Virus record (IMG/VR): IMGVR_UViG_3300049460_000121
Location: 203,468 to 267,467 of that record
Source: a virus
Taxonomy: Duplodnaviria; Heunggongvirae; Uroviricota; Caudoviricetes
Direction: 5' to 3' (one strand)
DNA: 64,000 bases
Shown: positions 7,757 to 22,420 of the stretch, one piece after another
Position numbering within the stretch: position 1 is the stretch's first letter
Layout: every line of letters starts with the position of its first letter
The notes under the pieces: generated by a model
The model's input: only the letters and a program-made list of their open reading frames with translations
Told to the model about the DNA's origin: nothing
The model's database searches: none
Translations under genes and position numbers: made by a program

Positions 7757-8247
7757 GTGCCGTGGATACAACGTACGATTACACCAAGCCTGAACTCGCT
7801 CTTATGTTTGACGTCCTCAGACATTCGAATGATAAGTTCCCGATAGATCCAACCGAGCTTTCGTGGAGCGAACCAACCGCAGTATACCCTCCGACCCACA
7901 AAGGACGTGATACGTCCATTGAGGCGACGATTGTGAACAGCGATCGTTACAGAGGGAAAGGGACCTACTACTACCTGCGTGTACCGCTGAGGCAGTTGAC
8001 CCCACGATGCGGCATGATTCCACGAATCGTGATCGGGAAGCGTCCGAGTCTCTATGAGAATTTGACGTACATCAACGCCGCCCTATCTCTCAACCTTGAG
8101 CAGGTATCGGTGGACGACATCGACCTTAATTCGTTGTCGGTGAACGCATCGGACTGGACCCTGGTTCGGATCTTTGCAAAGGCTACTTCGCGGGTCTATT
8201 CGGACTCTGTACGACTCTACCTTAAACGGGACAATAGCCTCGTTTAA
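7753..8247 (+). CDS. paralogue family A member (164 aa)
   Basis: GTG start overlapping the upstream stop (GTGA). Weak family-A pattern. Confidence 0.45.
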   Translation: MSAVDTTYDYTKPELALMFDVLRHSNDKFPIDPTELSWSEPTAVYPPTHKGRDTSIEATIVNSDRYRGKGTYYYLRVPLRQLTPRCGMIPRIVIGKRPSLYENLTYINAALSLNLEQVSVDDIDLNSLSVNASDWTLVRIFAKATSRVYSDSVRLYLKRDNSLV

Positions 8248-8291
8248 GCTCGATCCTATGTAGAACACCCGCCCTACTGAAGGAACCCGCG

Positions 8292-8819
8292 ATGGCGAAG
8301 CACATCAGCGACTTTAGCAAGTTGCCGTTGGAGATCGTTTTCGATCTTATCAATGAGCAAAACGGTTCGGCGCTCAACAACACAGAGGTGGTGTTGGGTC
8401 AACCGACCGTAGCCACCGGCAGCGGTGGTTATAACACTGACATTTTAGTCACTGCCCGGCCGAATGGTCGTTATGAAGGTTCTGTTAGCCTCGGCTATAA
8501 CCGTCTGGATGTGGTAGGTTTCCTGTTTGGCGATACCATCACCCTTACCCTGGGTGATGCAACGAACGTTTCGGACCTGATCCCTGAGATCAATACGAAG
8601 CTCAGAGCCAACCTCACTACGGATGACTTCGTAGACGCGCCTATCGGGACGTGGACGGGAACACCAGGCGAGACTAAGCAGCTCACCATCCAGATGAAGC
8701 CTACCAGCTTAGTCTTTATCGGCGAGTTGGCGCTGACAGTGCATGTCGACGATATCCCGTTGGGTGATGTCATTGTCATCAGCGCCCTGCCGGGTCTGAT
8801 TTACCAACCACCTGCCTGA
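8292..8819 (+). CDS. paralogue family A member (175 aa)
   Basis: GAAGGAAC SD. The N-domain LPLEIVFDLINEQN...NTDILVTA...GYNRLDV is clearly shared with its neighbours. Confidence 0.6.
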   Translation: MAKHISDFSKLPLEIVFDLINEQNGSALNNTEVVLGQPTVATGSGGYNTDILVTARPNGRYEGSVSLGYNRLDVVGFLFGDTITLTLGDATNVSDLIPEINTKLRANLTTDDFVDAPIGTWTGTPGETKQLTIQMKPTSLVFIGELALTVHVDDIPLGDVIVISALPGLIYQPPA

Positions 8820-8887
8820 ACAGCGGGATTCTATGAGTTCCCCCAAAGGTAACGCTCAGCAACCCTTTTATAGAAGAGAGACGCCCA

Positions 8888-9436
8888 ATGGCTGACAATC
8901 TTACACTGCCTCCCAAAGAGGTAATTTGTGCGCTGATCAACCGTACTAACACTGCGGTAGGTGCTGCACTGACTCCAGCTCTGGTAACGTTCGGTCTGCC
9001 GAGCCAATCCAGCGGTGGTACTTTCAACACCGACCTCACCGTGACCGCGATTGACGGTTCAGGCTATGTCGGGATTGTACCGATCAACTACAACCGTGTG
9101 CACCTGCAAACGGAAATTGCTGATCCGTACGCCGCCAGTGGCGTTGGTCGTAACCTCGACTTCAACATCGGCAGCGCGATCAAGATCGCTGACATGGTTC
9201 CGCAGATCAACGCACGGTTCGGTATCAACCTGACCTCTGCCGACTTCATCGACGGCGACCTGCCTACCTTCGTTGGTGGGGCGAACGAGACTCATCCCGT
9301 CCAGGTCATCGCCAACGCCGACTCCCTCTGCTACCGCGGCAGCTTCACCTTCACCCTGATGGCTGAAGACATCGAGCTGAGCACCGTGATTGTCGAGACG
9401 GTCATGAACGGCCTGACCTACGCTCCACCGGTCTAA
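8888..9436 (+). CDS. paralogue family A member (182 aa)
   Basis: N-domain PPKEVICALINRTN...NTDLTVTA...GYVG...NYNRVHL. Confidence 0.6.
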   Translation: MADNLTLPPKEVICALINRTNTAVGAALTPALVTFGLPSQSSGGTFNTDLTVTAIDGSGYVGIVPINYNRVHLQTEIADPYAASGVGRNLDFNIGSAIKIADMVPQINARFGINLTSADFIDGDLPTFVGGANETHPVQVIANADSLCYRGSFTFTLMAEDIELSTVIVETVMNGLTYAPPV

Positions 9437-9453
9437 TCATTCAGTACTGCACA

Positions 9454-9484
9454 GATGAGGGGTGGGTTCGCCCCACCCCTCATC
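9454..9484 (+). other. intergenic stem-loop within the plus-strand array (GATGAGGGGTGGG-ttcg-CCCACCCCTCATC)
   Basis: Perfect 13-bp stem with no U-tract. Possibly an RNA processing or stability element. Confidence 0.4.
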
Positions 9485-9511
9485 TAGTCTGTCCGGCCCA
9501 GGAGACTCCCT

Positions 9512-10300
9512 ATGTTCCTTTTACCAGACGGGTCGAAGCAGTCACTGATCGACGCCGTGAACGATGTCAATACGTTCCCAGTTGCATTCACCGCAGCCGA
9601 CCTTTATTTCGGCAAAGTCAAGATCGAAAGCAACGGCCACGTCAGTGTGCCTGCTGTCACTATGTACAACAGCGAGTTCGAGGGTTACATCCGCCTGAAC
9701 TATCAGCGGCTTGACCTCGGCAAAGTGTACGGGACCATCAAGCCCAAGATTCGCCGGGTAGGTTATCCTACGTTGTACCGTCTACTGCCAATCATCAACG
9801 AAACTCTCGGTCTCAGTTTGACTGAAGAGGACGTGGTGGACATTTCCATCACATGGCTGAACGATAACGAGCAGATCAACATCCCGGTTATCGCCAAAGC
9901 GAACTCCCTCGGTTTCGAAGGACAGTTCATGCTGGAGTACACTCGAGTTCGTCCTGAGTTGGCAACACTGGCCATCAAGACCCTCAACGTACTGAAGCAT
10001 CCTATCGAGCCAGCGCTGGGTAAGAAATCCCTAGCGATGATGACGTGGGGTATCGACTTCACCGATGACATGGGTGACTTTGCGCTCAACGCAGGTAGCT
10101 GGCGGTTCCAAGATCGGGTTGAGGCTCGTATGGCGGAGTTGGGATTCCCTAACTGGCCACGGCCACCGTACTGGACGCTGACGGCCGTCCCCACATCGCA
10201 AGTCCCATTGGCCAACCAAGAGTTTGAGTATGTGATCGTCCAAAAGGACATCGTTCTCGCAGACCACATTGGCGATGGCTACATCCACTTCAATCGTTAG
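9512..10300 (+). CDS. paralogue family A member (262 aa; C-terminal YIHFNR)
   Basis: AGGAG SD. N-domain plus the C-terminal HYN-type motif. Confidence 0.6.
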   Translation: MFLLPDGSKQSLIDAVNDVNTFPVAFTAADLYFGKVKIESNGHVSVPAVTMYNSEFEGYIRLNYQRLDLGKVYGTIKPKIRRVGYPTLYRLLPIINETLGLSLTEEDVVDISITWLNDNEQINIPVIAKANSLGFEGQFMLEYTRVRPELATLAIKTLNVLKHPIEPALGKKSLAMMTWGIDFTDDMGDFALNAGSWRFQDRVEARMAELGFPNWPRPPYWTLTAVPTSQVPLANQEFEYVIVQKDIVLADHIGDGYIHFNR

Positions 10301-10315
10301 TGAGAGGCTCCATCC

Positions 10316-11143
10316 ATGGCCTTGTATCCAGATCCGCTCGATTCCATCTTGGCGTCGATCAAATCGCTTAATAGCGGGACAGAGCTTGGGCGGGACGAAT
10401 ACATCTTCGACGCGCCTGTAGCCATCCCTCCAGAAGCCGGTGGTATCAACACCAGCCTGAGGATCTCGCAGAACGGCCCTACAAGCCCGTATGCGGGCGA
10501 AGTGACTGTAAAGCATATCCGACTCAACCTCGATGACTTGCGCATCCTGGTGCCTTCCGACATCCGCGTCAGTGGCGTCACCACCACGCTCGAGTTTGCC
10601 ACCCAGTTGAACCGTATCTACGGGACCAACATCGGCGCGTCTGACATCGAGACCACTGGGATGGCTCTGACGGATGGTGTCGGCACCATCACCCTGACGG
10701 CTAAGCCAGCGTCACGGGCATGGATTGGCACTGTAACCTTCAACGTTACTCCCGGCCGTTTCCAGTTGGCCGATTACCTGACCGATACTACCCTCGACGG
10801 TCTGCAATATCCAGACCCGTATGAAGGTAAAGCGTTCGGTAACGCTTATGCTTACTGGCGCAACTTCTCCGATCAATTCACCGCCCTCGAAACGATCACT
10901 GTCGAGTCTCCGGACTGGACTGCCATCAAAGATGTACTGGTTGCGGTCACTACCGACGCCTGGGTACTCACTGGCAGCTCACGGTTCTCGCTGGAAGGCG
11001 CTGAGGTGCTGTATGTAGGCGCGGTAGCCGGTTACCCTGAGCTGAACCAGACTTACGACAAAGCGGTGGTCCTGAAGCTCGGTGCAGCCTGCCTGGGTTA
11101 CTCGGGTCGGATGTTCCTGCACTATAACGAACCGGACGAGTGA
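10316..11143 (+). CDS. paralogue family A member (275 aa; C-terminal FLHYNEPDE)
   Basis: Family motifs at both termini. Confidence 0.6.
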   Translation: MALYPDPLDSILASIKSLNSGTELGRDEYIFDAPVAIPPEAGGINTSLRISQNGPTSPYAGEVTVKHIRLNLDDLRILVPSDIRVSGVTTTLEFATQLNRIYGTNIGASDIETTGMALTDGVGTITLTAKPASRAWIGTVTFNVTPGRFQLADYLTDTTLDGLQYPDPYEGKAFGNAYAYWRNFSDQFTALETITVESPDWTAIKDVLVAVTTDAWVLTGSSRFSLEGAEVLYVGAVAGYPELNQTYDKAVVLKLGAACLGYSGRMFLHYNEPDE

Positions 11144-11151
11144 GGTGACCG

Positions 11152-11934
11152 ATGAACAGCGCAGATAAGATTCGTCAGCTGCTCAACGATTCGAACCTAC
11201 CGCCGAAAGAGTTCACCTCCGTCAACTTGCGGATGGATCTACCGATCCTTGAGCTTGGCGAAGGCTACAACACCAAGCTAGGCCTTGAAGGTATCCCAGG
11301 TCGTGGCTATTACGGCCCGGCTGAAGTCTTCTATCGCCGTATCGACCTCAGTACGATCAATCGCCAGACGCCGGTGCGGACGACCATCCCTCTGACGGCT
11401 CAGGTGGTGTTGGACCTCTTCAATGCGGTCACAGCGCTGTTCCTGACGCTGGAAGACGTTGAACCTTTTACCCCACCGGTGTTGAATGATGGGGATAGTG
11501 GTGAAGTCACCATTGTCGCGGTAGAGAACTCGTTGGGCTTTACTGGTTCGGCTGTCATTCCGTTGGAGTTTGGACGGTCGTGGTTGGATTCGGTGGTGGG
11601 GAGTCGTATCCTCCCTGTCCTCAAGCATCCGATCGTGAAACTCGACTATCGGCAATCGGCTCGCATGCTGACGTGGTCCAAGGACTTCACCTGCTTGCGC
11701 GACAGCCTCTTGCCGAACACGATCAGTCAGTACTCTGATTGGTCAACGTTAAATGCCGCATGTTTGGAGATGGGAATCCCGCCTTGGGTTCAGGCTGGCA
11801 TTAGCGATAACGCCACCAGCGATATTCTGGATAGTAACCCACTGTTTGATCGGGTGGTCATCCAACGTAACGTGCTGAGCGCCTCGATGCTGGGTGATCT
11901 TTATTTCCATTACAATATCCTCGAAGAGGTTTAA
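11152..11934 (+). CDS. paralogue family A member (260 aa; C-terminal YFHYNILEEV)
   Basis: GAGGTGA SD; the N-domain includes LPPKEF as in 8888. Confidence 0.6.
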   Translation: MNSADKIRQLLNDSNLPPKEFTSVNLRMDLPILELGEGYNTKLGLEGIPGRGYYGPAEVFYRRIDLSTINRQTPVRTTIPLTAQVVLDLFNAVTALFLTLEDVEPFTPPVLNDGDSGEVTIVAVENSLGFTGSAVIPLEFGRSWLDSVVGSRILPVLKHPIVKLDYRQSARMLTWSKDFTCLRDSLLPNTISQYSDWSTLNAACLEMGIPPWVQAGISDNATSDILDSNPLFDRVVIQRNVLSASMLGDLYFHYNILEEV

Positions 11935-11936
11935 CC

Positions 11937-12878
11937 ATGCCACTTTACAACAAGCCGTCCAAGGCGTTGGTCTATGACCTCATCAACGAGGCTAACCCAA
12001 CGCTGCCGATTCCGCTTACGGTTGCGAACACCAAGCTGAGTGATCCAGCACCGGCAACGGTTCCTGGTAACGCGGCAATGAATACGGTGATCACGGTCAG
12101 TGCAGCCTCAGCCGATTACATCGGTCGTAAGCCACTGAACTACCGTCGTCTGTCGTTCAACAACCTGTTCCGCGGTATCACGGTACAGATCAACAAGTAC
12201 TCGGCGAACCAGACCGCATCCAACTCCGTGGTATTCACCCTGTACAACCTGTTGCCAATCATCAACACGATCTACGGCCTCAATCTGAGCGAAGACGACG
12301 TCACCAACGTCAACATTCTTCGAGGCACCGTCCAGGAGAATGGGTTCTACACCTCCACGGTGACAGTGACTGCCAAGGCTACCAGTCTCGGTTACATCGG
12401 CTCGTTCTCACTCAAATGGCGCAGTGCTCCACAAGAGCTCGAGTCCATGATTACCGTAACCGACCTGGCTGCTCGTTCGTTCCCAGGCGGCAACACCTTC
12501 GATGGCGGTCACCCAGTTGTCGTCGACAACATGGCGTACGGTATCGACTGGACCGCGTTCATCGCCACCGCGCCGTGGGGTAACTTCCCAGGTAACCTGA
12601 TCGCGGGTGGTGAGACCCCAGCGTTCGGTAACCGGTTCATCGCTGAACTCAACCGGCTGTATGGCAAGAACCTGGTGGGTTCGTACAACAACGCTCCAGC
12701 ATACGCCTACTTGGATTGGGGCACTGCGGTGTACGACCTCTCCACTCAAGCCGGCCGCGATGCCGCTCCGTTGGCCAACTCTACGTACTACAACCGCGTG
12801 CTTATCTGGACCATTCCAACGTATGACACCGCGCGTGGTGCTGGTATCGGCCAACACTACATCCACTTCAACGTCTGA
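11937..12878 (+). CDS. paralogue family A member (313 aa; C-terminal YIHFNV)
   Basis: Family motifs present. Confidence 0.6.
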   Translation: MPLYNKPSKALVYDLINEANPTLPIPLTVANTKLSDPAPATVPGNAAMNTVITVSAASADYIGRKPLNYRRLSFNNLFRGITVQINKYSANQTASNSVVFTLYNLLPIINTIYGLNLSEDDVTNVNILRGTVQENGFYTSTVTVTAKATSLGYIGSFSLKWRSAPQELESMITVTDLAARSFPGGNTFDGGHPVVVDNMAYGIDWTAFIATAPWGNFPGNLIAGGETPAFGNRFIAELNRLYGKNLVGSYNNAPAYAYLDWGTAVYDLSTQAGRDAAPLANSTYYNRVLIWTIPTYDTARGAGIGQHYIHFNV

Positions 12879-12889
12879 GGATAGATCTA

Positions 12890-13762
12890 ATGTCTTACAT
12901 GACTCCGTCACTCACCGACTTCTTGAAGGCGCTCAACACCGCCAACTCGACGGCGTACACGGTCAACGACATCACCTTCGGCGTGCCTCAAGCGCTCTCC
13001 GGGACCTGGCAAGGTCAGGTGACCACCCGCAACACCGGCGTTCGCGTCACTGCCAAAGCCGGTGGTCCGTATCAGGGCAAGCGTGACCTCACCTACGATC
13101 GCCTGAACTTGGCGTCGTTGACGGCTACTAACCTCGCCGGCTTCCAATGCTCGGCGTACAACATCACCACAGTACACACCCTGTTGCCGATGCTGAAGTA
13201 TTGGACAGGCATTCAGTTCACCACCGATGACCTGGAGAACAATCCCCTGGTCGACAACGGTGACAACACCAGCACCACCACCTTGACTGCAAAGGCTGGC
13301 AGTTTGGGCTGGATTGGTAGTGCGACTCTGATCGTCACCCGTGGTGCGGCTCCGATCGATCAGTTGGTTACGGTTACCTCGTTGAACGGTCTGAACTACC
13401 CGACTGCCAACGATCAGGACACCTTCGGTGCCCTGTACCTGTACCCGTACGATTACACCAGCTACTTCAGCACGATGTCGGCAATTGCTCCAGGTGTCAT
13501 CGCCGGTACTCAAGCAGACGCTCTCGTAGCCATGCTGCTGGCGACCGACCTTGGCGCAGGCAAAGCGTTGTGGGTAAACAACCCTGGCGTGACGGCATGG
13601 AACCTGGCTGGCGCAACAGTGGTTAGCAACGGCCTGAACACCCCAGCCCTACCAACCAACTCCACGTACAAGTACGTGATGGGTCTGCAACTGGATCCGG
13701 CTGTGTTGACTCCTGCTGGTCTGATGTACCTCCACTACAACGATCCGTTCGACGCGGCGTAA
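12890..13762 (+). CDS. paralogue family A member (290 aa; C-terminal STYKY...YLHYNDPFDAA)
   Basis: GAGGA SD; full two-domain architecture. Confidence 0.6.
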   Translation: MSYMTPSLTDFLKALNTANSTAYTVNDITFGVPQALSGTWQGQVTTRNTGVRVTAKAGGPYQGKRDLTYDRLNLASLTATNLAGFQCSAYNITTVHTLLPMLKYWTGIQFTTDDLENNPLVDNGDNTSTTTLTAKAGSLGWIGSATLIVTRGAAPIDQLVTVTSLNGLNYPTANDQDTFGALYLYPYDYTSYFSTMSAIAPGVIAGTQADALVAMLLATDLGAGKALWVNNPGVTAWNLAGATVVSNGLNTPALPTNSTYKYVMGLQLDPAVLTPAGLMYLHYNDPFDAA

Positions 13763-13764
13763 GT

Positions 13765-13796: not shown

Positions 13797-13819
13797 ACTT
13801 ATCCATTGGGAGACTAATC

Positions 13820-14842
13820 ATGCTTCGTGCAATTATTGGATTCGATCACATCGGCAAGAACTTGGCCGAAGCCGCATGGCTACCGAACTGCGGGTATGCC
13901 ATCACTCACAGTGCCGGTAATAAACAATTCCTCATCTCGTCAGACGCTAGCCTCAGTGTGGCGGCTGGTGTTTCGTCCGGGTACGCTCAGTCGGTCTTTG
14001 ACCTCAGTCCATTTTTGGTTCCCGGCATCTCCACCCTGTCAGTCGGCATTCGGTTCAAGACCCTCGTTGCTGGTAATTCTGGCCAGATGTTTTTTATCGG
14101 GACGACCGTAGCCGTCTCCGACCCCCAGTTCATCGCCAACTACGCCGATATGCCAGCCGCCGCTCAACTAGCCGGCGGTGAAACGTATCTGGAGGTGGTT
14201 TACAACCTGACGGCTGGGACGTACAGTGTTTACTGGGACGATGTCCTAAAGGGTACGTATACAACCGCCACCATCAACCAAACCAGTCTAAAAGCTGGTA
14301 AGTTGGTACTAATCATGGAACACACCGGCCCTAGCCAGAGCGGTGTGACGGCTTATCGCGACATCGTGATCGTTGACGATCTCCCAGGCGATGGCTACGT
14401 CACTCGCCTGGGTCCTCGGGTCATTTATCCAGTGACGTTGGATTCGGCATCCGGAACAGACTGGACCAGCAGTGATGGGTCTGGGTTCCTGACAGCCCTT
14501 AATGTACCGATTGAGACTGCTGGTGCTGCAACCCTGACATCGGGTCCAAGTAAAGTGCCATTGGTCACCAGCCTCAAGGCAGCTACCTTGCCGACACAAA
14601 ACACGATCGTCGACGGTGTCTTCATCATGGCTGCCGGTAAGACCGACATCTCGTCAGCGTTGGTGGGTAGTACATTGACCAACGGCGCTAAGTCCATCAA
14701 GGGACAGTCGAAGACATTCACCACAACGCTGAAATACGGTAACCCATTAGGGATGTTTGCTCGAGCTCCAGATGGTAGTCGTTGGACTGCCGCTTCCATC
14801 GACGCGACATCACTCAGTCTGACTCCTGACGTAGCGAGTTAA
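13820..14842 (+). CDS. paralogue family B member (340 aa; N-terminus MLRAIIGFDHIG, C-terminus W.AASIDATSLSLTPD)
   Basis: Start placed at the Met that has a GGGAGA SD, which matches the N-termini of the other family-B genes. Confidence 0.6.
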   Translation: MLRAIIGFDHIGKNLAEAAWLPNCGYAITHSAGNKQFLISSDASLSVAAGVSSGYAQSVFDLSPFLVPGISTLSVGIRFKTLVAGNSGQMFFIGTTVAVSDPQFIANYADMPAAAQLAGGETYLEVVYNLTAGTYSVYWDDVLKGTYTTATINQTSLKAGKLVLIMEHTGPSQSGVTAYRDIVIVDDLPGDGYVTRLGPRVIYPVTLDSASGTDWTSSDGSGFLTALNVPIETAGAATLTSGPSKVPLVTSLKAATLPTQNTIVDGVFIMAAGKTDISSALVGSTLTNGAKSIKGQSKTFTTTLKYGNPLGMFARAPDGSRWTAASIDATSLSLTPDVAS

Positions 14843-14845
14843 ACC

Positions 14846-15859
14846 ATGACTCTAACTGTAAGGGCAGTGACAGGGTATGCGGTAGCCCGACCGGCGTCAA
14901 GTGTGACGGTACGTTCGATCAATGCTTACGCCTTGGTCAACCCCGCCCCACTTGTGCCAGGTCCGCCAGCGCCAACCGATTATCACGCCGATCAGATCGA
15001 TATTCTGTATGACCTGATCGAGAAGAGCAACCCAGGGTTTAAAGCCCAGTATCCGAAAGGGAAACTTCTATTCGGTGTTCCGTCTACGGTTGCATTGGTT
15101 CCAAGCGATCCTTATAAGACAGATACGTCGATATTGATCTCCCCTGCTCCTGGCAGCGGTGTTGTAGGTAGCCAGACTGTACGCTACCGACGGATTGACG
15201 TTGGTGTCATCTTCAAACACATGACGCTGAAGATGAGCGACTATTCGGTCACCACGACGTTGGCGGTAGCCACTTGGAAGGCTTCTTTCATTAAGAAGTT
15301 CGGCGTCAGCATTCCTGCGGCCGATATCACCAATAGCGCTGTCTTGACCTCGGGTGTGTTGACTAACATCAACATCGCCACTACCAGCCTTTGCTATAAA
15401 GGTACGGTACAGCTGACGTGGACTGTGGGCGCTCGACCGTTCCCTAGCTTCATCACGGATGCGAACCGGGCATTGGTCGGTCGACTCTACCCAGGCGGTA
15501 ACGACTTCAGTGGCGCGCGAAAGCCACAAGGTGAGTTTCAGGCGTACTGTCAAGATGCCTCAGCCATTGGCGCAACGATCGAAGCGTACGCTGCGGTGTT
15601 CAACGTAGGGGCGGGTGATAACACCGCCGCCACCAAGTCGCTGATCGATTGGCTGAACTCGACTACTGGACGTACGAACTGGTCTACAGCAGCATCGACT
15701 ACCGATGGCGGGATTGGCGGGATTACGTGGTACAGGTACACGATACCGTCAGCGCCCGTCCCTGAGGCCAACTCGGCTAAGTATAACCGTTGCTTGGTTA
15801 TCCAGGGTGTCGCGGGTAGTTGGTTCGGCGGCAAGATCATCATCCACTACAACGTGTAG
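14846..15859 (+). CDS. paralogue family A member with N-terminal GYAL-type peptide repeats (337 aa; C-terminal IIIHYNV)
   Basis: N-terminal repeats VTGYAVARP and INAYALVNP are followed by the family-A N-domain (LYDLIEKSN...). Confidence 0.55.
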   Translation: MTLTVRAVTGYAVARPASSVTVRSINAYALVNPAPLVPGPPAPTDYHADQIDILYDLIEKSNPGFKAQYPKGKLLFGVPSTVALVPSDPYKTDTSILISPAPGSGVVGSQTVRYRRIDVGVIFKHMTLKMSDYSVTTTLAVATWKASFIKKFGVSIPAADITNSAVLTSGVLTNINIATTSLCYKGTVQLTWTVGARPFPSFITDANRALVGRLYPGGNDFSGARKPQGEFQAYCQDASAIGATIEAYAAVFNVGAGDNTAATKSLIDWLNSTTGRTNWSTAASTTDGGIGGITWYRYTIPSAPVPEANSAKYNRCLVIQGVAGSWFGGKIIIHYNV

Positions 15860-15867
15860 GGTCCGTC

Positions 15868-16362
15868 ATGGGTATTTTCGTATCAAGCCAGGCGGACTTG
15901 ATTGCGATGATCAACATTGCGAGCGGTGTTACATTCACCGCTTCCGACTTGGTCTTCGGAACACCAAGAGCCGCTACCTCTGCTGAGATCACTCAGTACG
16001 GTAAAAACACCGCTATCCCTGTCCGTGGTTCCGACACTTCAACGTTGGTGTCAGGTTCCACGCTGTTCTTCTACGACCGCCTGAACTTACAGCCACTCGA
16101 GAAATTCGACCTGACTACGTGCTACTGTAGCGACGGTTTGGCGATGGCTGCATGGGTACCTATCGTTACCAACTATCTGAACGTTCCTCTCACGGTTGGT
16201 AATTTGGTCGAACACGCATCGTCAACGGTCAACGGTAAAGTGACGGTACAGCTGGAAGCGACCGCAGCTAGTTTGGGATGGTTCGGAACAGCCACGTTGA
16301 AGTTCGGTGGATATCCTGACATCGCGACAGCCTTCTCCGATAATAAATTGACTGGCTTCTAA
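15868..16362 (+). CDS. family A N-domain-only ORF (164 aa) - 5' half of a split member
   Basis: Contains the N-domain motif and ends without the C-domain. The next ORF supplies the C-domain. Confidence 0.5.
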   Translation: MGIFVSSQADLIAMINIASGVTFTASDLVFGTPRAATSAEITQYGKNTAIPVRGSDTSTLVSGSTLFFYDRLNLQPLEKFDLTTCYCSDGLAMAAWVPIVTNYLNVPLTVGNLVEHASSTVNGKVTVQLEATAASLGWFGTATLKFGGYPDIATAFSDNKLTGF

Positions 16363-16377
16363 GCCGAGGGTATCACC

Positions 16378-16767
16378 ATGCAAGATTGGCCGAATTACCT
16401 GATCCGTCAGGACTTCACCGAACTGGGTATCATGCTGCGCGATATCCCATTGGGTCCGCTGAATGAAGCCGACCAACGACTGGTAGCTCAGATCTTGTCC
16501 GAATCCGGTCCTACGACCGACGCGGGTAAGTGGAACATGGACGAGCACGCCACGGAGTACAGCCTGAACGGTGCTGAGGTCGTGTACAACGAACTCAACC
16601 ACCGTGACCTCCCTACCTTCAGCACTTACAAGTACGCCCTCGGGTTGCGCTTCCCAGAACGTTCTACCGGCCCTGTTGGTACACTCTACTTCTGCTGGCA
16701 TGATCCAGTAGTAGAGGCGCCTGCCGAAGAACCTCCTGTCGAAACCGAACCTGTGGCTGAGGAGTAA
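16378..16767 (+). CDS. family A C-domain-only ORF (129 aa; STYKYALGL...YFCWHDP) - 3' half of a split member
   Basis: Aligns with the C-terminal domain of 12890..13762 (STYKYVMGL...YLHYNDP). Has a Pro/Glu-rich tail. Confidence 0.5.
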   Translation: MQDWPNYLIRQDFTELGIMLRDIPLGPLNEADQRLVAQILSESGPTTDAGKWNMDEHATEYSLNGAEVVYNELNHRDLPTFSTYKYALGLRFPERSTGPVGTLYFCWHDPVVEAPAEEPPVETEPVAEE

Positions 16768-16771
16768 CGAC

Positions 16772-17806
16772 ATGCTTCGTGGAATTTATGGTTTCGACCA
16801 TCTACCAAGAACCCCTGCACCGGTATTGAACGGAGCGATGACGGCGTTCGCTACCTACCTCGGGTATCAGTCGACTGTAGTCAACCCAACCGGACTCGGT
16901 GTGGATCCGGATGGGTTCATTGGCTCGTACGTGGTGGCCGCCACCAACGTCGGGTTCGACATGACTGGTGTGATCCCACCCAACCCAACCAAGGTGACCT
17001 TCGGCTTCCGAATGAAGGTGCTGGCAATTTACGCCAGCGCTCACGGCATTTTATTTATGTCGGACGCACCCACCCCCAACAGTGTCGCATACTACCCACT
17101 CATCCTGACCGCAGCTAACGCTCCGTGGAGTCAGGTCATCGGTAAAGAAACGTACGTCGAGATTACCTACGATTTCGTAGCTTTTACCGCCACCATGGTG
17201 GCTGATGGAGTTACACAGACAGTTACTCAAGGGAACGTCTTCAGTGCTGCGGTTAAAGCTGCAATTGTCGCCGGTACCTTCGCCATCAACTTTGGGTTGA
17301 GTTCAGGTCTTAACAACCGTTACGCTATCCGCGACTTCTACATCGTCGACGCGGTAGCGGGTGATGGCATGACAGGCCCCTTGGGTTCGCAGCGGATGTA
17401 TCCAATCACCCTGGACGCAGCTGCCGGCGCTGGCTGGACTCCGTCGGCTGGCGGTACCGCCCTGGATACGATTAACGCCGCGTTACCAGCCGCACCGTAC
17501 GTGACGTCCCCTGCCGACAAGACTCCGTTGGTCACTAGCCTTAAAACCACAGCACCGGATGGCACCCATGTGAACGGCGTGAGTCTGTTGCTCTCAGGTA
17601 CCAGTACGGGTGACGCAGCTTCGGTCAGTAAGATCGAAATCTCCCAAGGCGGTTCCAACGCTCCTGTTAAATTCATTCCTGTTGCTCGCACGGTTACCTA
17701 CGGTGCTCAAATCGGAATCTATCCTAAAGCCCCGGACGGGACAGTGTGGGATATCGCGAAAATTGATGCGACCACTCTCAAACTGACACCCGACACCAGT
17801 GTCTAA
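16772..17806 (+). CDS. paralogue family B member (344 aa)
   Basis: GGAG SD; N-terminus MLRGIYGFDHLP; C-terminus WDIAKIDATTLKLTPDTSV. Confidence 0.6.
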   Translation: MLRGIYGFDHLPRTPAPVLNGAMTAFATYLGYQSTVVNPTGLGVDPDGFIGSYVVAATNVGFDMTGVIPPNPTKVTFGFRMKVLAIYASAHGILFMSDAPTPNSVAYYPLILTAANAPWSQVIGKETYVEITYDFVAFTATMVADGVTQTVTQGNVFSAAVKAAIVAGTFAINFGLSSGLNNRYAIRDFYIVDAVAGDGMTGPLGSQRMYPITLDAAAGAGWTPSAGGTALDTINAALPAAPYVTSPADKTPLVTSLKTTAPDGTHVNGVSLLLSGTSTGDAASVSKIEISQGGSNAPVKFIPVARTVTYGAQIGIYPKAPDGTVWDIAKIDATTLKLTPDTSV

Positions 17807-17823
17807 TACGAGGTTGTATAATC

Positions 17824-18792
17824 ATGGCAGTTAAAGCAGTTATCGGCTTCGAGCATTTGCCGCAGGGTGACACGTCGTGGATCAACTACGCCACTCACGG
17901 CATGACGCGTAACGCCGACTTGTCGGCACAGACCACCATCGTCAACGGATGGCTTGTGAGTAACGCCACCTCCAGCGGTGCTGAGCGCGTAAGTATCCCA
18001 CTGGACTCGTACCTTCTTACCCCTGTCGCGAAGATCTGGTTCGGGTATCGTTGCCGGATCACCAAGAATGCCAAAGGTGGGGCGGGTCTCGTTTACCTGA
18101 ACGGCACCTACGTCCTCCTCGACACGCTACTTCCAGTAACCGGCAACACCTGCTACATCGAGATGTCGTTCGACCCAAACACCGGTACTGTAGAACGTTG
18201 GATCGATGGCGTTAAAATCGCCAACTCAGCGGCCGGCGCCACACGCACCATGACCCTTGGGCTGGAAGCCAAAGGTAGTTTGAACGGGCAGTACGACTAT
18301 CGCGACTTCTACATCTGCGATGACCAAGGCGCCGGTCAGGGATTTCCTATCGGACCATTGGGTCCACAGATAACCGTCCCTATCACCTGCGACTCAGCAT
18401 CGGGCAGTGATTGGACGACCACCCCTGGCGGTACGGCGTTGGTAGATGCGATCAGCGAACCAGGCGCCATTCCAACGACCAAGATCGCCACGTCCAACGT
18501 CACCACCAAAGGTCCGCTTACGGCCAGCCTGAAAGCCACGATCCCAGGCGGTACCGTCATCACTGCGCTTGAGTTGGTCGCCGGCATCTCTTCCGCAGGT
18601 GCGGCATCTGTTCTCTGTGCGTCTAAAATAAAGTCTGGCGCCAATGAAGTTGCTGGGCGGTCGATTCAAGGTAATGTTGGGTCGTACAACTACAACGGTA
18701 GCGTTGGCGTATTCCACAAAAACCCCGCTGGGGCAACATGGGATGCTGCAAGTATTGACGCCACGGATTTCATCTTATCGCCAGATGCGTAA
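17824..18792 (+). CDS. paralogue family B member (322 aa)
   Basis: N-terminus AVIGFEHLP; C-terminus WDAASIDATDFILSPDA. Confidence 0.6.
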   Translation: MAVKAVIGFEHLPQGDTSWINYATHGMTRNADLSAQTTIVNGWLVSNATSSGAERVSIPLDSYLLTPVAKIWFGYRCRITKNAKGGAGLVYLNGTYVLLDTLLPVTGNTCYIEMSFDPNTGTVERWIDGVKIANSAAGATRTMTLGLEAKGSLNGQYDYRDFYICDDQGAGQGFPIGPLGPQITVPITCDSASGSDWTTTPGGTALVDAISEPGAIPTTKIATSNVTTKGPLTASLKATIPGGTVITALELVAGISSAGAASVLCASKIKSGANEVAGRSIQGNVGSYNYNGSVGVFHKNPAGATWDAASIDATDFILSPDA

Positions 18793-18803
18793 GGGAGTAG
18801 TCC

Positions 18804-19478
18804 ATGACTGTTAATATTGCCAACGTTCAGGGCTATGCTCTGACACGCCCTGCGATGGGGGCGAAAGTCTCCAACGTTCAGGGTTATGTGTTGATGATCC
18901 CGCCAGCCCCTGTACGACTGCGTGAGGTACGCGGCTACGTGATGGGTGCTCCCCCACTATCGATCAATTTAAGATCGGTTGCTGGTTACGCGATGGCGAC
19001 GTATATCCCGTTACCAAAAGGACAGACCTTTGCGACTGCCCTGATGACTATGATCCTGGCGAGAGCGAAATCGGTCCGTCCAGCCACGCACTTCAACCTC
19101 GGCGCTGTTGAGGTTGGTGATGTAGTCGGGTACAACTCCAAAGTCAAGTTGACGCCAACGGCATTGGCTCAGTTGTCCGGGGAGATGTATTTCCACTACA
19201 ACCGAGTTTACATGAACCGGATGCCTGACCTCAGTTCTGTTGTTGTCGGTTCTGAAGCCACTACACAGGCATTGATCTCTAAGATCAATACCGTGACCGG
19301 CATGCAGTTGACGGCGGCTGATATCGTAGACGAACCGATCGATTCAGAGGCGACCGTGGTCAGCATTAAAGCAGCCACCACCAGTTACCTGTTCGTCCCC
19401 GGCACTTCCGTGTCAGTAGGGTCGATCTTACCGCCACTCTCGTTGGCATTTACTGATCCAATCATTCGTTGGAGCTGA
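18804..19478 (+). CDS. paralogue family A member with GYAL repeats (224 aa; YFHYN near the C-terminus)
   Basis: N-terminus carries four GYAL-type repeats (NVQGYALTRP, NVQGYVLMIP, VRGYVMGAP, VAGYAMATY). Confidence 0.55.
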   Translation: MTVNIANVQGYALTRPAMGAKVSNVQGYVLMIPPAPVRLREVRGYVMGAPPLSINLRSVAGYAMATYIPLPKGQTFATALMTMILARAKSVRPATHFNLGAVEVGDVVGYNSKVKLTPTALAQLSGEMYFHYNRVYMNRMPDLSSVVVGSEATTQALISKINTVTGMQLTAADIVDEPIDSEATVVSIKAATTSYLFVPGTSVSVGSILPPLSLAFTDPIIRWS

Positions 19479-19488
19479 GGTATTAAAC

Positions 19489-20592
19489 ATGGCTATTCGT
19501 AGTTTCTTTGGTTACGACGATGTGGTAATGCCTATTGGTGAGCAGATCCCAGCCGGCTTTACTACGCTCCCACCGTTACCATTTAGCTTTAAGGCCGGCG
19601 CGGCAGCCCTTCGTGGCGCGACCTACACGAAAGACTCTGGCTGGCTGAAATGTACGGCAAGTACTGGTTACAGCGGCAGTACCCAAAAAGTCAACTATCT
19701 CCAGGCATCGCTTGCCGGTCTTGGCCTCACTGCGTCGGCTACGGCCGTCGTTACGGTTGGGTTGCGTTGGATAGCACCAGCTGCTAACGCAGGGGGTTCG
19801 CAAGCGGCGAACTGGGTCCACCCGATGGCGTTTATGGGTTCGACCACGGTCGATGGGACTACCTTGCCCGCTGCCTCAGTGTTCCCCATCGGTAGTATCC
19901 CAGGCTTTGTGTATGGTCAAGAGTATTACCTCGAGGCCCAATGGGATATCGCCGCTAACATCGTGCGCCGCCGGGTCGATGGTAAAGCCATTGCCGACAT
20001 TGCGTTGGCGGCTGGTGTTGCCTCACTCTTTGCGGCGGGGACTACCTTGTTTGTCAGCGGTACTACAGCGGTATCCATCTCAGCCAACACTATCGATGTG
20101 ACGTTCTGGCTGAAGGACATGTACGTCATCGAGAAGACCAATGATGGTACGGCAGACTCCTTCTTGGGTCCGCAGCGGGTATTCCCGATCACCACCGCTA
20201 GCCTTGACCAAGCTACCTGGGCTGCCACCGGCGCAGCTGATTCTGTAACAGCGTTGAACATGGCTGTTACGGATTCTGCTAGTTTGACAACCCCGGTGGT
20301 GACGACGGATGTGGCCAACCCCACCGCCAATGTCGGTCTATCTATACCTACCTTCGCCGGACCGGTGAACGGTGTAGTCCTCTTCGCCACCGCCCGTAGA
20401 AAGGATGGTGCATCTGGTACCCTCGCTGCCCAAGTAACCTCGGGTACTGACAATTCATCTCAGACGAATAACGTCTTGAGTAGCACTATTGTCCCAGGAT
20501 ACAAGCTGTACCTTGCCGAGAAGTCTCCTTCGGGCGTTCGTTGGACCCGTGCAGCAATTCAGGCCGCGAAACTTAAACTCACTGCCTCGTAG
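19489..20592 (+). CDS. paralogue family B member (367 aa)
   Basis: N-terminus SFFGYDDV; LGPQRVFPIT hinge; C-terminus WTRAAIQAAKLKLTAS. Confidence 0.6.
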   Translation: MAIRSFFGYDDVVMPIGEQIPAGFTTLPPLPFSFKAGAAALRGATYTKDSGWLKCTASTGYSGSTQKVNYLQASLAGLGLTASATAVVTVGLRWIAPAANAGGSQAANWVHPMAFMGSTTVDGTTLPAASVFPIGSIPGFVYGQEYYLEAQWDIAANIVRRRVDGKAIADIALAAGVASLFAAGTTLFVSGTTAVSISANTIDVTFWLKDMYVIEKTNDGTADSFLGPQRVFPITTASLDQATWAATGAADSVTALNMAVTDSASLTTPVVTTDVANPTANVGLSIPTFAGPVNGVVLFATARRKDGASGTLAAQVTSGTDNSSQTNNVLSSTIVPGYKLYLAEKSPSGVRWTRAAIQAAKLKLTAS

Positions 20593-20603
20593 TCGGAGTC
20601 ACC

Positions 20604-21680
20604 ATGGTTACAACAAACTTCTTTGGCTTGGAGCACTTACCTATTGAGTTCGCGGCTGGAGCCGCACTCACTGGGTGGGGGTTGGCTTATTCAGAGTTAG
20701 CCCCTACAATCTACAGTGGTGGTGATCTCCATTACGCTGTCCCTAGAATCAAAAACAACAAGATCGTTTTCGGTCCAGACATCAGTGGAGGGTCGTATGG
20801 TGTCGGCGCGACTTACATACTGCTCAGCAAACTCATTGGGAACGTCACGCCTCGTAAAGTAATCATTGGCTTTCGTCATGAAACTATCGGTGCTGTCTCT
20901 GGAGCACCTCCGGTGTTCGGCACAAGTCCTGCGAACAACACGACTACTAGCGCCGGGTTTTTACCACTGAAGACAACGGCGGCTACACCACTGCCCGATG
21001 GTTATTACGAGATCATCTTTGACTTCGTAGCTTCCACGTACACCGTTATGTTCAATGGCGGTGTGTATACGGCAGCTACGTCGTTGGGCAGCTCCGGTCT
21101 GACTGCGGCTAACTTCAAGACCAACTTCTGGACAATCGGACATCCGTACACCGTGTGGTTCACGCCAGCGGTTGACGTATTCGCAATATCGGATATCTAT
21201 TCGATGGTGTCTATCGATCCTGCCGACGATGCGCTGATCAAACCACTCGGTCCGATCACCCTTAAACGACTACCTGTGTTGTCGACCACTGGGGCCGGCT
21301 ACACGCCTCCTGGCGGCTCTAACATAGTCGACGCCTTGAACACTCGCCGCGCAGCTACAGCGAGCCTCTCAGCGCCTAAGGTGGGCGTTGCAGCAGACAA
21401 CACCCCGTTACGGGTAAAGGTTGATGCGTCGTCGTTATCGTTTGTTACTGTGAGGGGTATCAGTGTCAAGGTAGCTGCGGTAAAAGACGTGGCCGGCGAT
21501 AAAACCCTCTCCGTGGCGCTGGCTTCCAATGGCACTACTAACGCATCGGTACCCGTAACAATGACTGCTGCGGCGGCGCCTCTCGATGCTTCACCGGGCG
21601 GGCTGCTTACCATGCCCGATGGTTCGGGCCTTACGATAGCTTCCTTGAGTAATTTGGAAGTGGTCCTTACCCCCGCTTAA
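20604..21680 (+). CDS. paralogue family B member (358 aa)
   Basis: N-terminus NFFGLEHLP; C-terminus LTIASLSNLEVVLTPA. Confidence 0.6.
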   Translation: MVTTNFFGLEHLPIEFAAGAALTGWGLAYSELAPTIYSGGDLHYAVPRIKNNKIVFGPDISGGSYGVGATYILLSKLIGNVTPRKVIIGFRHETIGAVSGAPPVFGTSPANNTTTSAGFLPLKTTAATPLPDGYYEIIFDFVASTYTVMFNGGVYTAATSLGSSGLTAANFKTNFWTIGHPYTVWFTPAVDVFAISDIYSMVSIDPADDALIKPLGPITLKRLPVLSTTGAGYTPPGGSNIVDALNTRRAATASLSAPKVGVAADNTPLRVKVDASSLSFVTVRGISVKVAAVKDVAGDKTLSVALASNGTTNASVPVTMTAAAAPLDASPGGLLTMPDGSGLTIASLSNLEVVLTPA

Positions 21681-21697: not shown

Positions 21698-22420
21698 ATG
21701 TCCACAAGTTTAAGGAGTGTCGACGTTTACGTAGCGGTCAGTCAGATACCGACGGTTGAGTTGCGTAAGGTCAACGGTTACGCTCTAGCTACTACAGTAG
21801 AGCCCATCACACTGCGGGGCATCAACGGTTACGCTCTGGTAGATCAGGTTAAACGACCCGACCTGAACATCTCAGGTAAAGTTGGGATACTGGCCGCGAT
21901 CAACAAAGAGCAAGGCACCTCGTTTATTGCTAGCCAATTGACGTTCGATATCCCCCAACCCACCGCCGATCAAACACAGGCGTACAACACGACCATCAGG
22001 GTAACAGCGAAAAAGAGTTCAGGGTATTCCGGCTACTACACGTTCCAGTACGCCAGATACGCTCTCTCTGAAGCGTTCGATGGTCAGGCGTTGGATCTGC
22101 CGGGCGTTGTAGGTACAACTATCTGGGGAACGTTGGATGCTATCAATACCAAGTTTTTCATCAAGCTTGAGCAGTACGACGTAGCCGACGGACCTATTAC
22201 TCCAGGCGCTACTTCTATCCTACTCACGGTTCTGGATAGTAGCATTTACTACAAGTCTGGAACGACGATCCGGTTAGGCAGTACTGATATCGATATTCCA
22301 TTCGCAACGATCGCTCCTGTGACCAATGCGTTGGGCTTCGATCCAGTTGGGATTGTCGATGTTCCATTTGCGAGCATCGCACCCGTAACAGATGTACTGG
22401 GTTTCGATCCAGAAGCATAA
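21698..22420 (+). CDS. paralogue family A member with GYAL repeats and a tandem C-terminal repeat (IPFATIAPVTNALGFDP / VPFASIAPVTDVLGFDPEA)
   Basis: N-terminus has VNGYALATT and INGYALVDQ. The family-A N-domain is LAAINKEQG...NTTIRVTA...GYYTFQYARY. Confidence 0.55.
   Translation: MSTSLRSVDVYVAVSQIPTVELRKVNGYALATTVEPITLRGINGYALVDQVKRPDLNISGKVGILAAINKEQGTSFIASQLTFDIPQPTADQTQAYNTTIRVTAKKSSGYSGYYTFQYARYALSEAFDGQALDLPGVVGTTIWGTLDAINTKFFIKLEQYDVADGPITPGATSILLTVLDSSIYYKSGTTIRLGSTDIDIPFATIAPVTNALGFDPVGIVDVPFASIAPVTDVLGFDPEA

Follow-up and report, generated by a model that had tools for sequence, protein, structure and literature searches.

Organisation of the locus

The window analysed here, a stretch of 64,000 nucleotides, belongs to the genome (~267 kb) of an uncultured phiKZ-like jumbo phage. 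Within it lie five plus-strand genes encoding proteins of 322-367 aa (B1 to B5), set in an array of genes from a second family, A (Table 1). A sequence-only reading had taken the five to be paralogues interleaved with family A. Both points are borne out, as the reading frames lie at the positions given in Table 1 and match each other in BLASTP far beyond chance, and the gene map together with the DUF7941 matches confirms the interleaving. Family A is Pfam DUF7941 (PF25613), recognised above the gathering score. We place the start of B1 at ATG 13820 rather than at GTG 13763, in agreement with its orthologues (P0001, 340 aa, is 100% identical).

Table 1. Genes and repeats of the B-DUF7941 array in the window.
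Position	Strand	Feature	Basis
7232..13762	+	Nine upstream DUF7941 genes, without N-terminal extension and without B partner	PHROG 1037 and 2935 matches; family A HMM start positions 0-6
13820..14842	+	B1, family B, 340 aa; predicted ConA/LamG-like N-domain and CBM-like C-domain	ORF
14846..15859	+	A_14846, full-length DUF7941 fibre subunit: N-terminal domain, linker, C-terminal domain	PF25613 E=1.4e-28, residues 45-336
14855..14956	+	Two 17-aa repeats, TVRAVTGYAVARP and TVRSINAYALVNP, at the N-terminus of A_14846	PSSM scores 27.1 and 31.5
15868..16362	+	DUF7941 N-terminal module as own gene, first half of split DUF7941	PF25613 E=2.9e-14
16378..16767	+	DUF7941 C-terminal module as own gene, second half of split	BLASTP to C-terminal part of A_12890, 2e-9
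16772..17806	+	B2, family B, 344 aa; copy used for the structure model	ORF
17824..18792	+	B3, family B, 322 aa	BLASTP to B2 7e-30; PHROG 2448 E=1.2e-8
18804..19478	+	A_18804, DUF7941 N-terminal module only, 224 aa; 72-aa N-terminal extension	PF25613 E=2e-12
18813..19016	+	Four 17-aa repeats, NIANVQGYALTRP, KVSNVQGYVLMIP, RLREVRGYVMGAP and NLRSVAGYAMATY, in A_18804	PSSM scores 22.6-31.0; exact 17-residue period
19489..20592	+	B4, family B, 367 aa, divergent	BLASTP to B1 7e-10, to B2 1e-9; PHROG 2448
20604..21680	+	B5, family B, 358 aa, most divergent copy	BLASTP to B2 1e-11
21698..22420	+	A_21698, DUF7941 N-terminal module only, 240 aa; 55-aa N-terminal extension	PF25613 E=1e-17, residues 57-200
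21707..21859	+	Three 17-aa repeats, SLRSVDVYVAVSQ, ELRKVNGYALATT and TLRGINGYALVDQ, in A_21698	PSSM scores 21.8-28.9
22475-23455 and 23492-24064	-	Two DUF7941 genes closing the array	PF25613 E=6e-22 and 5e-12

The genes are tightly packed. A_14846, which carries a 44-aa N-terminal extension, begins 3 nt past the B1 stop codon, and the second half of the split DUF7941 stops 4 nt short of B2. The split is itself conserved, being found also at other loci (L002, L004, L005, L009, L014 and L015) and in Burkholderia phage FLC9. Three of the ~20 family A genes in the window are associated with B genes.

Family B and its conserved boxes

Family B comprises five old paralogues of what is predicted to be a two-domain, all-beta protein. 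The closest copies are B1 and B2 (BLASTP, 2e-31), B1 and B3 match at 5e-25, and the remaining matches are given in Table 1; B4 and B5 have no significant direct BLASTP match to each other and are connected via B2. An HMM of the family, searched against the six-frame ORFs of the window, retrieves exactly these five genes; B5, which is itself part of the seed alignment of the model, has an E-value of 1.5e-66. PHROG 2448, an unannotated group of unknown function, is matched over nearly the full length by B1 (7e-8, residues 7-330), B3 and B4 (5.3e-10), while B2 and B5 fall below detection (no match at E<=0.1) and are tied to the other copies by BLASTP. A sequence search of the PDB with the B proteins gave no match, the best E-value (0.03) belonging to an unrelated coat protein. 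Likewise, none of the five has a Pfam match at E<=1, whether to a glycoside hydrolase (GH) or polysaccharide lyase (PL) family or to any other. None of them matches PF25613 whereas the adjoining genes do, which makes B a family distinct from DUF7941 that accompanies it.

At least 1089 cluster representatives belong to family B (E<=1e-3, among 1.84 billion), nearly all of them 320-390 aa long. Only a single branch of the phiKZ-like (chimallivirus-like) jumbo phages has the family, which sits inside the DUF7941 gene array of these phages, as was the case in all 14 loci examined. Genomes carry from one to seven copies; the cultured phage FLC9 has six, along with a DUF7941 extension of 8 repeats. 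No B gene was found in a collection of bacterial and archaeal genomes scanned with one short peptide pattern, which detects close relatives only.

The three boxes from which the family had first been recognised are real and form the highest-information segments of a 162-sequence family alignment. In B2 they correspond to residues 1-12 (M.R...GFDH.P.), to a hinge at residues 203-226 (RLGP....P.......G.WT, with W222 reaching 5.5 bits) and to residues 320-340 (APDG..WT.A.....LTP). Further conserved core motifs are G78-x-R80, Y128-x-E130, D145-G and D188-x-Y190. B5 keeps the boxes weakly, with LGP followed by GYT in place of WT and a C-terminus ending ...VVLTPA. Evolution among B1 orthologues is fastest in the body of the N-domain, where identity is 48%; the boxes and the C-domain keep 63-89%. 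This pattern would suit a ligand-binding face that varies while the assembly surface is conserved.

Predicted folds and a possible enzymatic role

The full-length AlphaFold model of B2 (pLDDT 77.5, pTM 0.79) predicts two domains. The N-terminal ~200 residues are modelled as a ConA/laminin-G-like lectin jelly roll and the C-terminal ~130 residues as a beta-sandwich of the CBM32/6/35 (galactose-binding-like) type. Both predicted domains thus agree in fold with Laminin_G_3/ConA-like lectins and with CBM32/6/35; the matches were obtained against predicted models at 7-14% identity, and the ligand sites are putative. At the sequence level, PF13385 and related models find no match in the N-domain of any of the five proteins (E<=1), and Pfam offers no CBM family match for the C-domain. 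Some relatives of family B possess additional Laminin_G_3 domains, at the hinge or appended, and one of them has four. Aligned by hhalign with the Laminin_G_3 domains of such fused relatives, the B N-domain gives a weak match (probability 45%, P=2e-4) of 47 columns over the core motif, in which the Y-x-E...D-G of family B lies opposite the non-catalytic structural core of LamG, W-H-x-A...Y-I-(N/D)-G.

It is a standard arrangement in enzymes for a CBM to follow the catalytic domain, and the polar residues R80, Y128, E130, D145, D188 and Y190 are invariant family-wide. Both features would suit polysaccharide-degrading enzymes (depolymerases), in which a glycoside hydrolase or lyase built on a ConA-like jelly roll and joined to a CBM would be borne on the fibre and cut capsule, EPS or LPS instead of binding passively as a lectin. 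We nevertheless consider this quite improbable: the invariant Y-x-E...D-G falls on the non-catalytic core described above, the best fold matches are lectin domains rather than catalytic ones, and neither Pfam nor any other sequence search matched a GH or PL family at E<=1.

Linkage to repeat-bearing DUF7941 subunits

Each B run is followed, 3-20 nt downstream, by a DUF7941 gene whose product begins with an array of 17-aa repeats (xLRxVxGYALxxP...). The period is exactly 17 residues, and within the window the repeats occur only in A_14846, A_18804 and A_21698, the best repeat-PSSM score elsewhere being 15.9. Over the 14 loci, an N-terminal extension is present in 24/24 DUF7941 genes directly after a B run, as opposed to 1/124 other DUF7941 genes; in the former it measures 21-135 aa, or ~17n+5. 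Xanthomonas phage RTH11, also cultured, has a single B gene, and the 92-aa ORF behind it consists of YGYAL repeats only. The number of repeats tracks that of B genes loosely (mostly 2:1 or 1:1, also 2:3, 2:1 and 1:3), so that simple one-to-one docking is not established.

In other phages the two partners are fused in the order B, one repeat, DUF7941 (P0040, P0078, P0158 and P0167). P0040 unites the counterparts of B1 and A_14846 in a single polypeptide. P0078 does the same for B3 and A_18804, with 45% identity to B3 over the B part and 38.5% to A_18804 over the A part. P0158 joins a B protein to an A_21698-like subunit, A_21698 being the best match in the window to its A part. In these fusions the repeat starts 3-10 residues past the conserved C-terminal strand of B.

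The suggestion that A and B pair up is thus supported by strong genomic evidence, in that a B run precedes a repeat-bearing A gene and the same pairs are fused elsewhere, but the pairing is not of one A to one B. Duplication of whole units, also raised from the sequence, is plausible but would be old: contigs in which the B1 orthologue shares only 46-53% identity still have the order A...B A A A B B A B. As for a division into fibre and adaptor, family A does correspond to the fibre; the predicted fold of B, however, suggests a lectin or receptor-binding part rather than an adaptor, a role that more likely falls to the repeats of A.

Phage fibre chaperones are typically encoded beside their fibre gene. 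The tight gene order (gaps of 3-17 nt) and a client protein with a dedicated N-terminal peptide array could indicate that B proteins are non-virion assembly factors, chaperones or scaffolds that transiently grip the repeats of the next DUF7941 subunit during its folding or polymerisation. This seems improbable in view of the stable B-repeat-DUF7941 fusions in several phages and of the relative in which B is joined to four Laminin_G_3 domains. Moreover, B proteins are bigger than known tail-fibre chaperones and have predicted lectin and CBM folds, and five diverged paralogues with a fast-evolving lectin domain suit varied ligands better than a single client.

Beta jelly rolls are common scaffolds that are also used as structural or enzymatic domains. 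B proteins might be virion parts with no ligand role, such as spacers, branch points or bricks of the peripheral baseplate, with jelly rolls that are scaffolds only and genes interleaved with DUF7941 as co-regulated late structural genes, and the strong conservation of the terminal boxes does suggest protein-protein contacts. We regard this as unlikely, since a fixed structural brick would not usually vary between one and seven copies per genome, some relatives have gained further lectin-type domains, and it is the surface domain that evolves fastest.

Proposed role of family B

The partner family gives the B proteins a setting. DUF7941 proteins are abundant in virions, form filaments in vitro and are located on the outer peripheral baseplate of phiKZ; long flexible fibres, anchored on the peripheral baseplate, are reported to arise from their head-to-tail polymerisation (bioRxiv 10.64898/2026.04.21.720040). 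The family A profile matches phiKZ gp127 in PDB entry 9xqd (E=8e-17), and it is only for gp126/gp127, which belong to the same family as A and not to family B, that a position of the partner family has been solved.

Taken together, the paralogy, predicted folds, synteny rule, fusions and repeats are in our view best explained if B proteins are accessory subunits for host recognition that probably bind glycans and are held on DUF7941 fibres by the repeats, and on balance we lean towards this reading; their location on the virion, their binding of sugars and their mode of docking are what we infer from it. Proteins that resemble sugar-binding ones in both domains and are always encoded just before a repeat-bearing fibre-subunit gene would probably serve as host-recognition parts on the baseplate fibres. 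Each B run would be co-expressed with the DUF7941 gene next downstream, and B proteins would dock on the N-terminal repeat array of that subunit, which would act as their tether. Contact would most likely be made by beta-strand addition beside the conserved C-terminal strand of B, given where the repeat begins in the fusions. This would leave the variable lectin domain facing outwards, and different paralogues could confer several binding specificities on one virion.

Binding or enzymatic subunits are hung on a scaffold by short docking modules in the branched receptor-binding assemblies of CBA120 and G7C, through tailspike docking, and in the cohesin-dockerin system of cellulosomes. These share with the B system the concept only, without a sequence or fold relationship. 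More speculatively, and with considerable doubt, the GYAL repeats might form a peptide docking system not described before, comparable in phages to cohesin-dockerin. Strand addition would let each repeat take one B lectin-like subunit, so that a DUF7941 subunit would display a programmable set of lectins, with the copy number of repeats and B genes set by duplication and occasionally fixed by fusion.

Little is understood of how phiKZ-like jumbo phages find their hosts, and the proposal of a DUF7941 fibre cloud dates only from 2026. Should B proteins be the lectin ends of these fibres, they would be candidate host-range determinants across a large uncultured branch of phiKZ-like phages, to be found by a genomic rule (B run, then repeat array, then DUF7941), and the repeats might offer a modular docking peptide for fibre re-targeting. 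If docking on the repeats is real, it would explain in molecular terms how nucleus-forming jumbo phages recognise their hosts multivalently with a micrometre-scale fibre cloud. We found no virion proteomics of FLC9 or RTH11 in the literature; the presence of family B in these two cultured phages makes the idea directly testable.

Comparison with Goslar and SPN3US

Published mass spectrometry and cryoEM are uninformative on family B, as the family is missing from the first 100 kb of Goslar and, by HMM search (no match at E<=10), from the segment of the SPN3US array that was examined. SPN3US gp145-gp153, annotated as virion structural proteins, have an analogous layout, in which runs of another paralogous family (~300-330 aa) lie between the DUF7941 genes; this other family is PHROG 1062, not family B, and the array has no 17-aa repeats. 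In Goslar, DUF7941 proteins can bear carbohydrate-binding domains, and domains of carbohydrate-binding, glycoside-hydrolase or LRR type are appended to the DUF7941 proteins gp86, gp92 and gp161 (bioRxiv 10.64898/2026.04.21.720040). Common to Goslar and family B are lectin-type domains accompanying the chimallivirus DUF7941 fibre system, with a proposed role in host recognition, and some B relatives are likewise fused to DUF7941. In Goslar, however, the binding domain is fused C-terminally to the DUF7941 N-terminal module, whereas family B is a separate polypeptide encoded upstream, and N-terminal when fused. Family B also differs in its own two-domain architecture with conserved boxes, and in the 17-aa repeat array, which is absent from the description of the Goslar proteins (bioRxiv 10.64898/2026.04.21.720040).

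Family B genes and their conserved boxes

All five genes that the sequence-only reading had assigned to family B are present on the plus strand (see table). The ATG at 13820 is the correct start of B1, the first of them, because an identical 340-aa protein (P0001) is on record, where it is found on contigs of ~267 kb. Pairwise BLASTP gives E-values of 2e-31 for B1-B2, 7e-30 for B2-B3 and 5e-25 for B1-B3; B4 and B5 lie farther off yet are linked to the others (B2-B5 1e-11, B1-B4 7e-10, B2-B4 1e-9). Judged by these sequence comparisons, there is no doubt that the five proteins descend from a common ancestor. An HMM of the wider family, run against the six-frame ORFs of the window, finds precisely B1-B5 and nothing else.

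Features of the window discussed in the text (DUF7941 genes with an A_ name are named by their start coordinate)
Feature	Coordinates	Strand	Length (aa)	Remarks
DnaB-like helicase	1062-2603	+
Putative internal-head-protein-like gene	3286-4470	+
B1	13820-14842	+	340	family B
A_14846	14846 (start)			DUF7941; 3 nt after B1; N-terminal extension 44 aa; 2 repeats
Split DUF7941, N-terminal module	15868-16362	+
Split DUF7941, C-terminal module	16378-16767	+
B2	16772-17806	+	344	family B
B3	17824-18792	+	322	family B
A_18804	18804 (start)			DUF7941; 11 nt after B3; N-terminal extension 72 aa; 4 repeats
B4	19489-20592	+	367	family B
B5	20604-21680	+	358	family B
A_21698	21698 (start)			DUF7941; 17 nt after B5; N-terminal extension 55 aa; 3 repeats
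Collagen-like protein	25442-26548	+	368	phrog_3904, E=1.4e-52
PHROG 1062 family gene	26562-27275	+		PHROG 1062, 1.8e-34
Large SNF2/DEAD-type helicase	27386-29929	+
Glutathionylspermidine synthase-like protein	55220-56518	-		PHROG 6215, 1.9e-77

The boxes described for these proteins at the N-terminus, at a central hinge and at the C-terminus hold up as well. In an alignment of 162 family sequences they have the highest information content of all segments and read M.R...GFDH.P, RLGP....P.......G.WT and APDG..WT.A.....LTP, respectively; B5 keeps the three only weakly. Among B1 orthologues, identity is 89% in the N-terminal box, 79% in the C-terminal box, 69% in the hinge, 63% in the C-domain and 48% in the body of the N-domain. 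The presumed ligand-binding domain, being the least identical part, thus varies most, and the boxes act like an assembly surface.

Family B is recorded solely as PHROG 2448 (function unknown), which is matched by B1, B3 and B4. None of the five proteins has a meaningful Pfam match. A DUF7858 match in B4 is sub-threshold, and an SBBP beta-propeller repeat in B2 (residues 26-62, 22.6 bits) was dismissed as spurious, since only one repeat unit is matched, in the stretch where the structural model has its lowest confidence (pLDDT <50 at 17-35). The sole PDB match by sequence, the phage GA coat protein (E=0.03), was likewise rejected. An exhaustive HMMER search returned 1089 cluster representatives at E<=1e-3, 95 of them at E<=1e-30, nearly all 320-390 aa long and matching end to end; a narrower metagenome scan contributed just a single further long locus plus three short contigs. 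With one short peptide pattern, which reaches close relatives only, no bacterial or archaeal homologue was found among genomes taken one per species.

Among cultured phages, megablast of positions 13000-22000 gave no match, and tblastn with B2, B4 and a consensus of the family matched two phages alone: Burkholderia phage FLC9, whose six copies (gp311-316) include three that have insertions or extensions, and Xanthomonas phage RTH11, with one (WJJ54983.1). A literature search found no virion proteomics for either phage. The family B HMM had no match in the array region of SPN3US (E<=10) or in the first 100 kb of Goslar (E<=1), so that published virion data do not apply to family B. Copy number shifts fast between relatives, as the related contigs L005, L004 and L009 carry seven, three and two copies next to the five of the window; in L005 (IMGVR_UViG_3300023083_000001, a 258-kb related phage contig) the seven genes lie at 6082-16144 and include one run of four.

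Predicted folds

The AlphaFold2 model of B2 (pLDDT 77.5, pTM 0.79) consists of two beta domains, predicted to have lectin-like and CBM-like folds. The first (~residues 1-195) is modelled as a concanavalin A-like jelly roll, for which Foldseek returns legume lectins at probability 1.0. Comparison of the N-domain with the Laminin_G_3 domains of fused relatives by hhalign (P=2e-4, probability 45%) pairs the invariant Y-x-E...D-G of family B with the LamG core W-H-x-A...Y-I-(N/D)-G. On this alignment the residues look more like a signature of the fold than like part of a catalytic site. This bears on the idea that B is a depolymerase enzyme, which we regard as very unlikely, given that the invariant residues appear to fit the LamG structural core and that lectins are the best matches. 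An origin of the two B domains by internal duplication was also considered and rejected (hhalign probability 0.3%).

The surrounding DUF7941 array

The genes interleaved with family B match DUF7941 (PF25613) above the Pfam gathering threshold, as well as PHROGs 1037 and 2935, annotated as "virion structural protein". The window holds ~20 of them between 7232 and 25420, and a profile built from ten copies finds phiKZ gp127 in PDB 9xqd (E=8e-17). DUF7941 is restricted to chimalliviruses, and Goslar virions contain over about 2500 DUF7941 proteins (bioRxiv 10.64898/2026.04.21.720040). According to the same study, purified gp22 forms filaments, and AlphaFold predicts head-to-tail oligomers in which the linker and C-terminal domain dock on the N-terminal domain of the next protomer; in the outer peripheral baseplate of phiKZ, gp127 was placed, and gp126 by fitting. 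Certain Goslar members bear carbohydrate-binding, glycoside-hydrolase or LRR domains, and host recognition by a "fiber cloud" is the authors' proposal (bioRxiv 10.64898/2026.04.21.720040).

The best matches of the DnaB-like helicase are in phiKZ-like jumbo phages (top match Pseudomonas phage pPa_SNUABM_DT01, 35% identity), and the gene at 3286-4470 shows a similarity to phiKZ internal head proteins that stays below threshold. Together with the lack of a close cultured phage, these similarities indicate that the window comes from an uncultured jumbo phage that is distantly phiKZ-like (chimallivirus-like).

One DUF7941 gene is split into an N-terminal and a C-terminal module, 15 nt apart. The same split (~165 aa + ~120 aa) occurs at the same place in seven related loci (L002, L004, L005, L009, L014, L015, L016) and in FLC9, and hence represents a conserved arrangement rather than a pseudogene. 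A_21698 closes (22300-22420) with a tandem duplication, consisting of DIPFATIAPVTNALGFDP and then DVPFASIAPVTDVLGFDPEA. A similar short (L/V)xGF motif (...NKLTGF, ...DLDAFEAEA) terminates several DUF7941 proteins that lack all but the N-terminal module, including the split N-terminal module and the product of the gene at 23492-24064 (minus strand); B-DUF7941 fusions end in ...LNGFL and ...LIGFDPS. The motif may be left over from the linker peptide, which docks on the following protomer.

Runs of family B genes precede repeat-bearing DUF7941 genes

Gene order is kept in related contigs with a B1 orthologue at 46-53% identity, and more distant contigs show the same pattern: many plain DUF7941 genes in a row, a DUF7941 gene divided over two ORFs (N-terminal, then C-terminal domain) and one or more B units, in each of which a B run leads up to a DUF7941 gene. 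In the window, the DUF7941 proteins encoded after B runs carry N-terminal repeats of the form x(V/L)Rx(V/I)x(G/A)YA(L/V)xxP...., starting at residues 4, 21, 38 and 55 with a period of exactly 17. A PSSM built from 36 repeats and scanned over all six frames of the 64-kb window scores the nine repeats at 21.8-31.5, the next best score anywhere in the window being 15.9; no score exceeds 12.8 in the SPN3US and Goslar segments, both of which are without family B.

In all of the 14 loci covered, the B genes sit within DUF7941 arrays. Every DUF7941 gene right after a B run in these loci (24 of 24) has an N-terminal extension, of 21-135 aa and clustering at ~17n+5, so that among post-B genes the rule is without exception. 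Only one of the 124 other plus-strand DUF7941 genes has one (Fisher 9e-27, with independence overstated as the loci are related), and this gene, in L004, sits at a spot that holds a further B gene in other genomes. The rule is also valid in the distant phages FLC9, where the product of the gene after the B run starts with eight diverged 17-aa repeats, (V/L)R.(V/L).A(L/F).(W/L), and RTH11, where the one B gene precedes a 92-aa ORF that consists entirely of YGYAL-type repeats, with DUF7941 genes beyond it. Repeats and B genes mostly stand at 2:1 (nine units) or 1:1 (seven units); two B genes to three repeats, two to one and one to three also occur.

Two possible relationships of the repeat to other segments were considered and rejected. 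The N-terminal box of B (LRAIIGFDHLP) resembles VRAVTGYAVARP, but the PSSM does not support it as a copy of the repeat: the average score is -9 at B N-termini, -17.5 +/- 7 in internal windows and +25 in true repeats, and the N-terminus is the best-scoring window in just 1% of B proteins. Mimicry of the DUF7941 linker motif (LNGLxYP) was dismissed as well, the PSSM having zero matches in linkers.

At the B1/A_14846 junction (14840-14848), the TAA stop of B1 is followed by one codon and the in-frame ATG of A_14846. The 3-nt spacing recurs in L002, L004 and L005 at 46-60% protein identity, and its conservation suggests translational coupling. Stop-codon readthrough joining the two proteins is unlikely, because B3/A_18804 and B5/A_21698 are out of frame, and recoding is thus no general mechanism.

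Fusions and additional lectin domains

B and DUF7941 are also found as single proteins. P0078 (499 aa) shares 45% identity with B3 over residues 1-321, and its DUF7941 part is 38.5% identical to A_18804 from the last repeat of the latter onward; P0040 (612 aa) joins a B1-like part to an A_14846-like part, and P0158 (522 aa) a B part to an A_21698-like part. One phage array (L008) holds both P0078 and P0040. In every one of these proteins, exactly one repeat comes within 3-10 residues after the C-terminal box (...LTP), ahead of the DUF7941 N-terminal domain. By the textbook fusion/fission argument, B and the next DUF7941 protein would act as one unit. Alternatively, B might be an assembly chaperone that stays out of the virion; we think this quite unlikely, in view of the stable fusions on record and of a lectin domain that diversifies.

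Laminin_G_3 domains are inserted at the hinge in P0106 and FLC9 gp316 and appended in P0086 and P0133; P0167 consists of B, four Laminin_G_3 domains and DUF7941 fragments. In the more distant relative L014, the post-B DUF7941 genes combine N-terminal 17-aa repeats with a C-terminal Laminin_G_3 domain, and after them comes a tandem series of DUF7941-Laminin_G_3 genes without B partners (positions noted in L014: 9052-10461, 12680-14080 and 14829-17027). The Laminin_G_3-bearing variants point to sugar binding. A copy number ranging from 1 to 7 and the extra lectin domains added in relatives also make it unlikely that B is a purely structural brick.

Proposed role of family B

We classify family B among the accessory receptor-binding modules on phage fibres, a kind already known. 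As a general reading, the balance tips slightly towards B being a fibre-associated host-recognition subunit. The B proteins would be virion components of the DUF7941 fibre system and would bind glycans of the host surface, the paralogues perhaps differing in specificity. They could be tethered to a fibre subunit through its N-terminal repeat array, non-covalently in this phage and covalently in the fusions. In the simplest picture, a repeat strand would pair beside the last B strand, on the C-domain, since in the fusions the repeat comes almost at once after that strand. This specific picture of docking on the repeats is tentative, and we think it somewhat unlikely to hold.

The closest described case is that of the Goslar DUF7941 proteins with C-terminal carbohydrate-binding domains, which share the idea but differ in build: in the window a family of its own supplies the presumed binding part, which is encoded by the upstream gene, lies N-terminally when fused and comes with a dedicated repeat array. 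Salmonella phage SPN3US shows an analogous interleaving, but its second family is PHROG 1062 (gp146, gp147, gp149, gp150...). The gene at 26562-27275 of the window matches PHROG 1062 and the non-DUF7941 part of PHROG 3589, so the window phage also has one copy of this alternative accessory family.

Other features of the window

Promoter and terminator scans of 7000-26000 gave lower counts than shuffled sequence and are hence uninformative. Long antisense ORFs mirror real genes (22454-23449, plus strand, against 22475-23455, minus strand; 25535-26650, minus strand; and others) and are by-products of base composition; the 331-aa plus-strand ORF opposite the minus-strand DUF7941 gene at 22475-23455 was rejected, as an ORF is credible only on the strand that matches the family. 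The sole convincing terminator-like site in 7000-26000 is a strong GC-rich hairpin at 23458-23477 (minus strand), GGCCCGGC GCAA GCCGGGCT, followed by a T-rich stretch and located between two minus-strand DUF7941 genes. Directly after the DUF7941 array lies the collagen-like protein, which has long Gly-X-Y runs and matches phage tail-fibre PHROGs.
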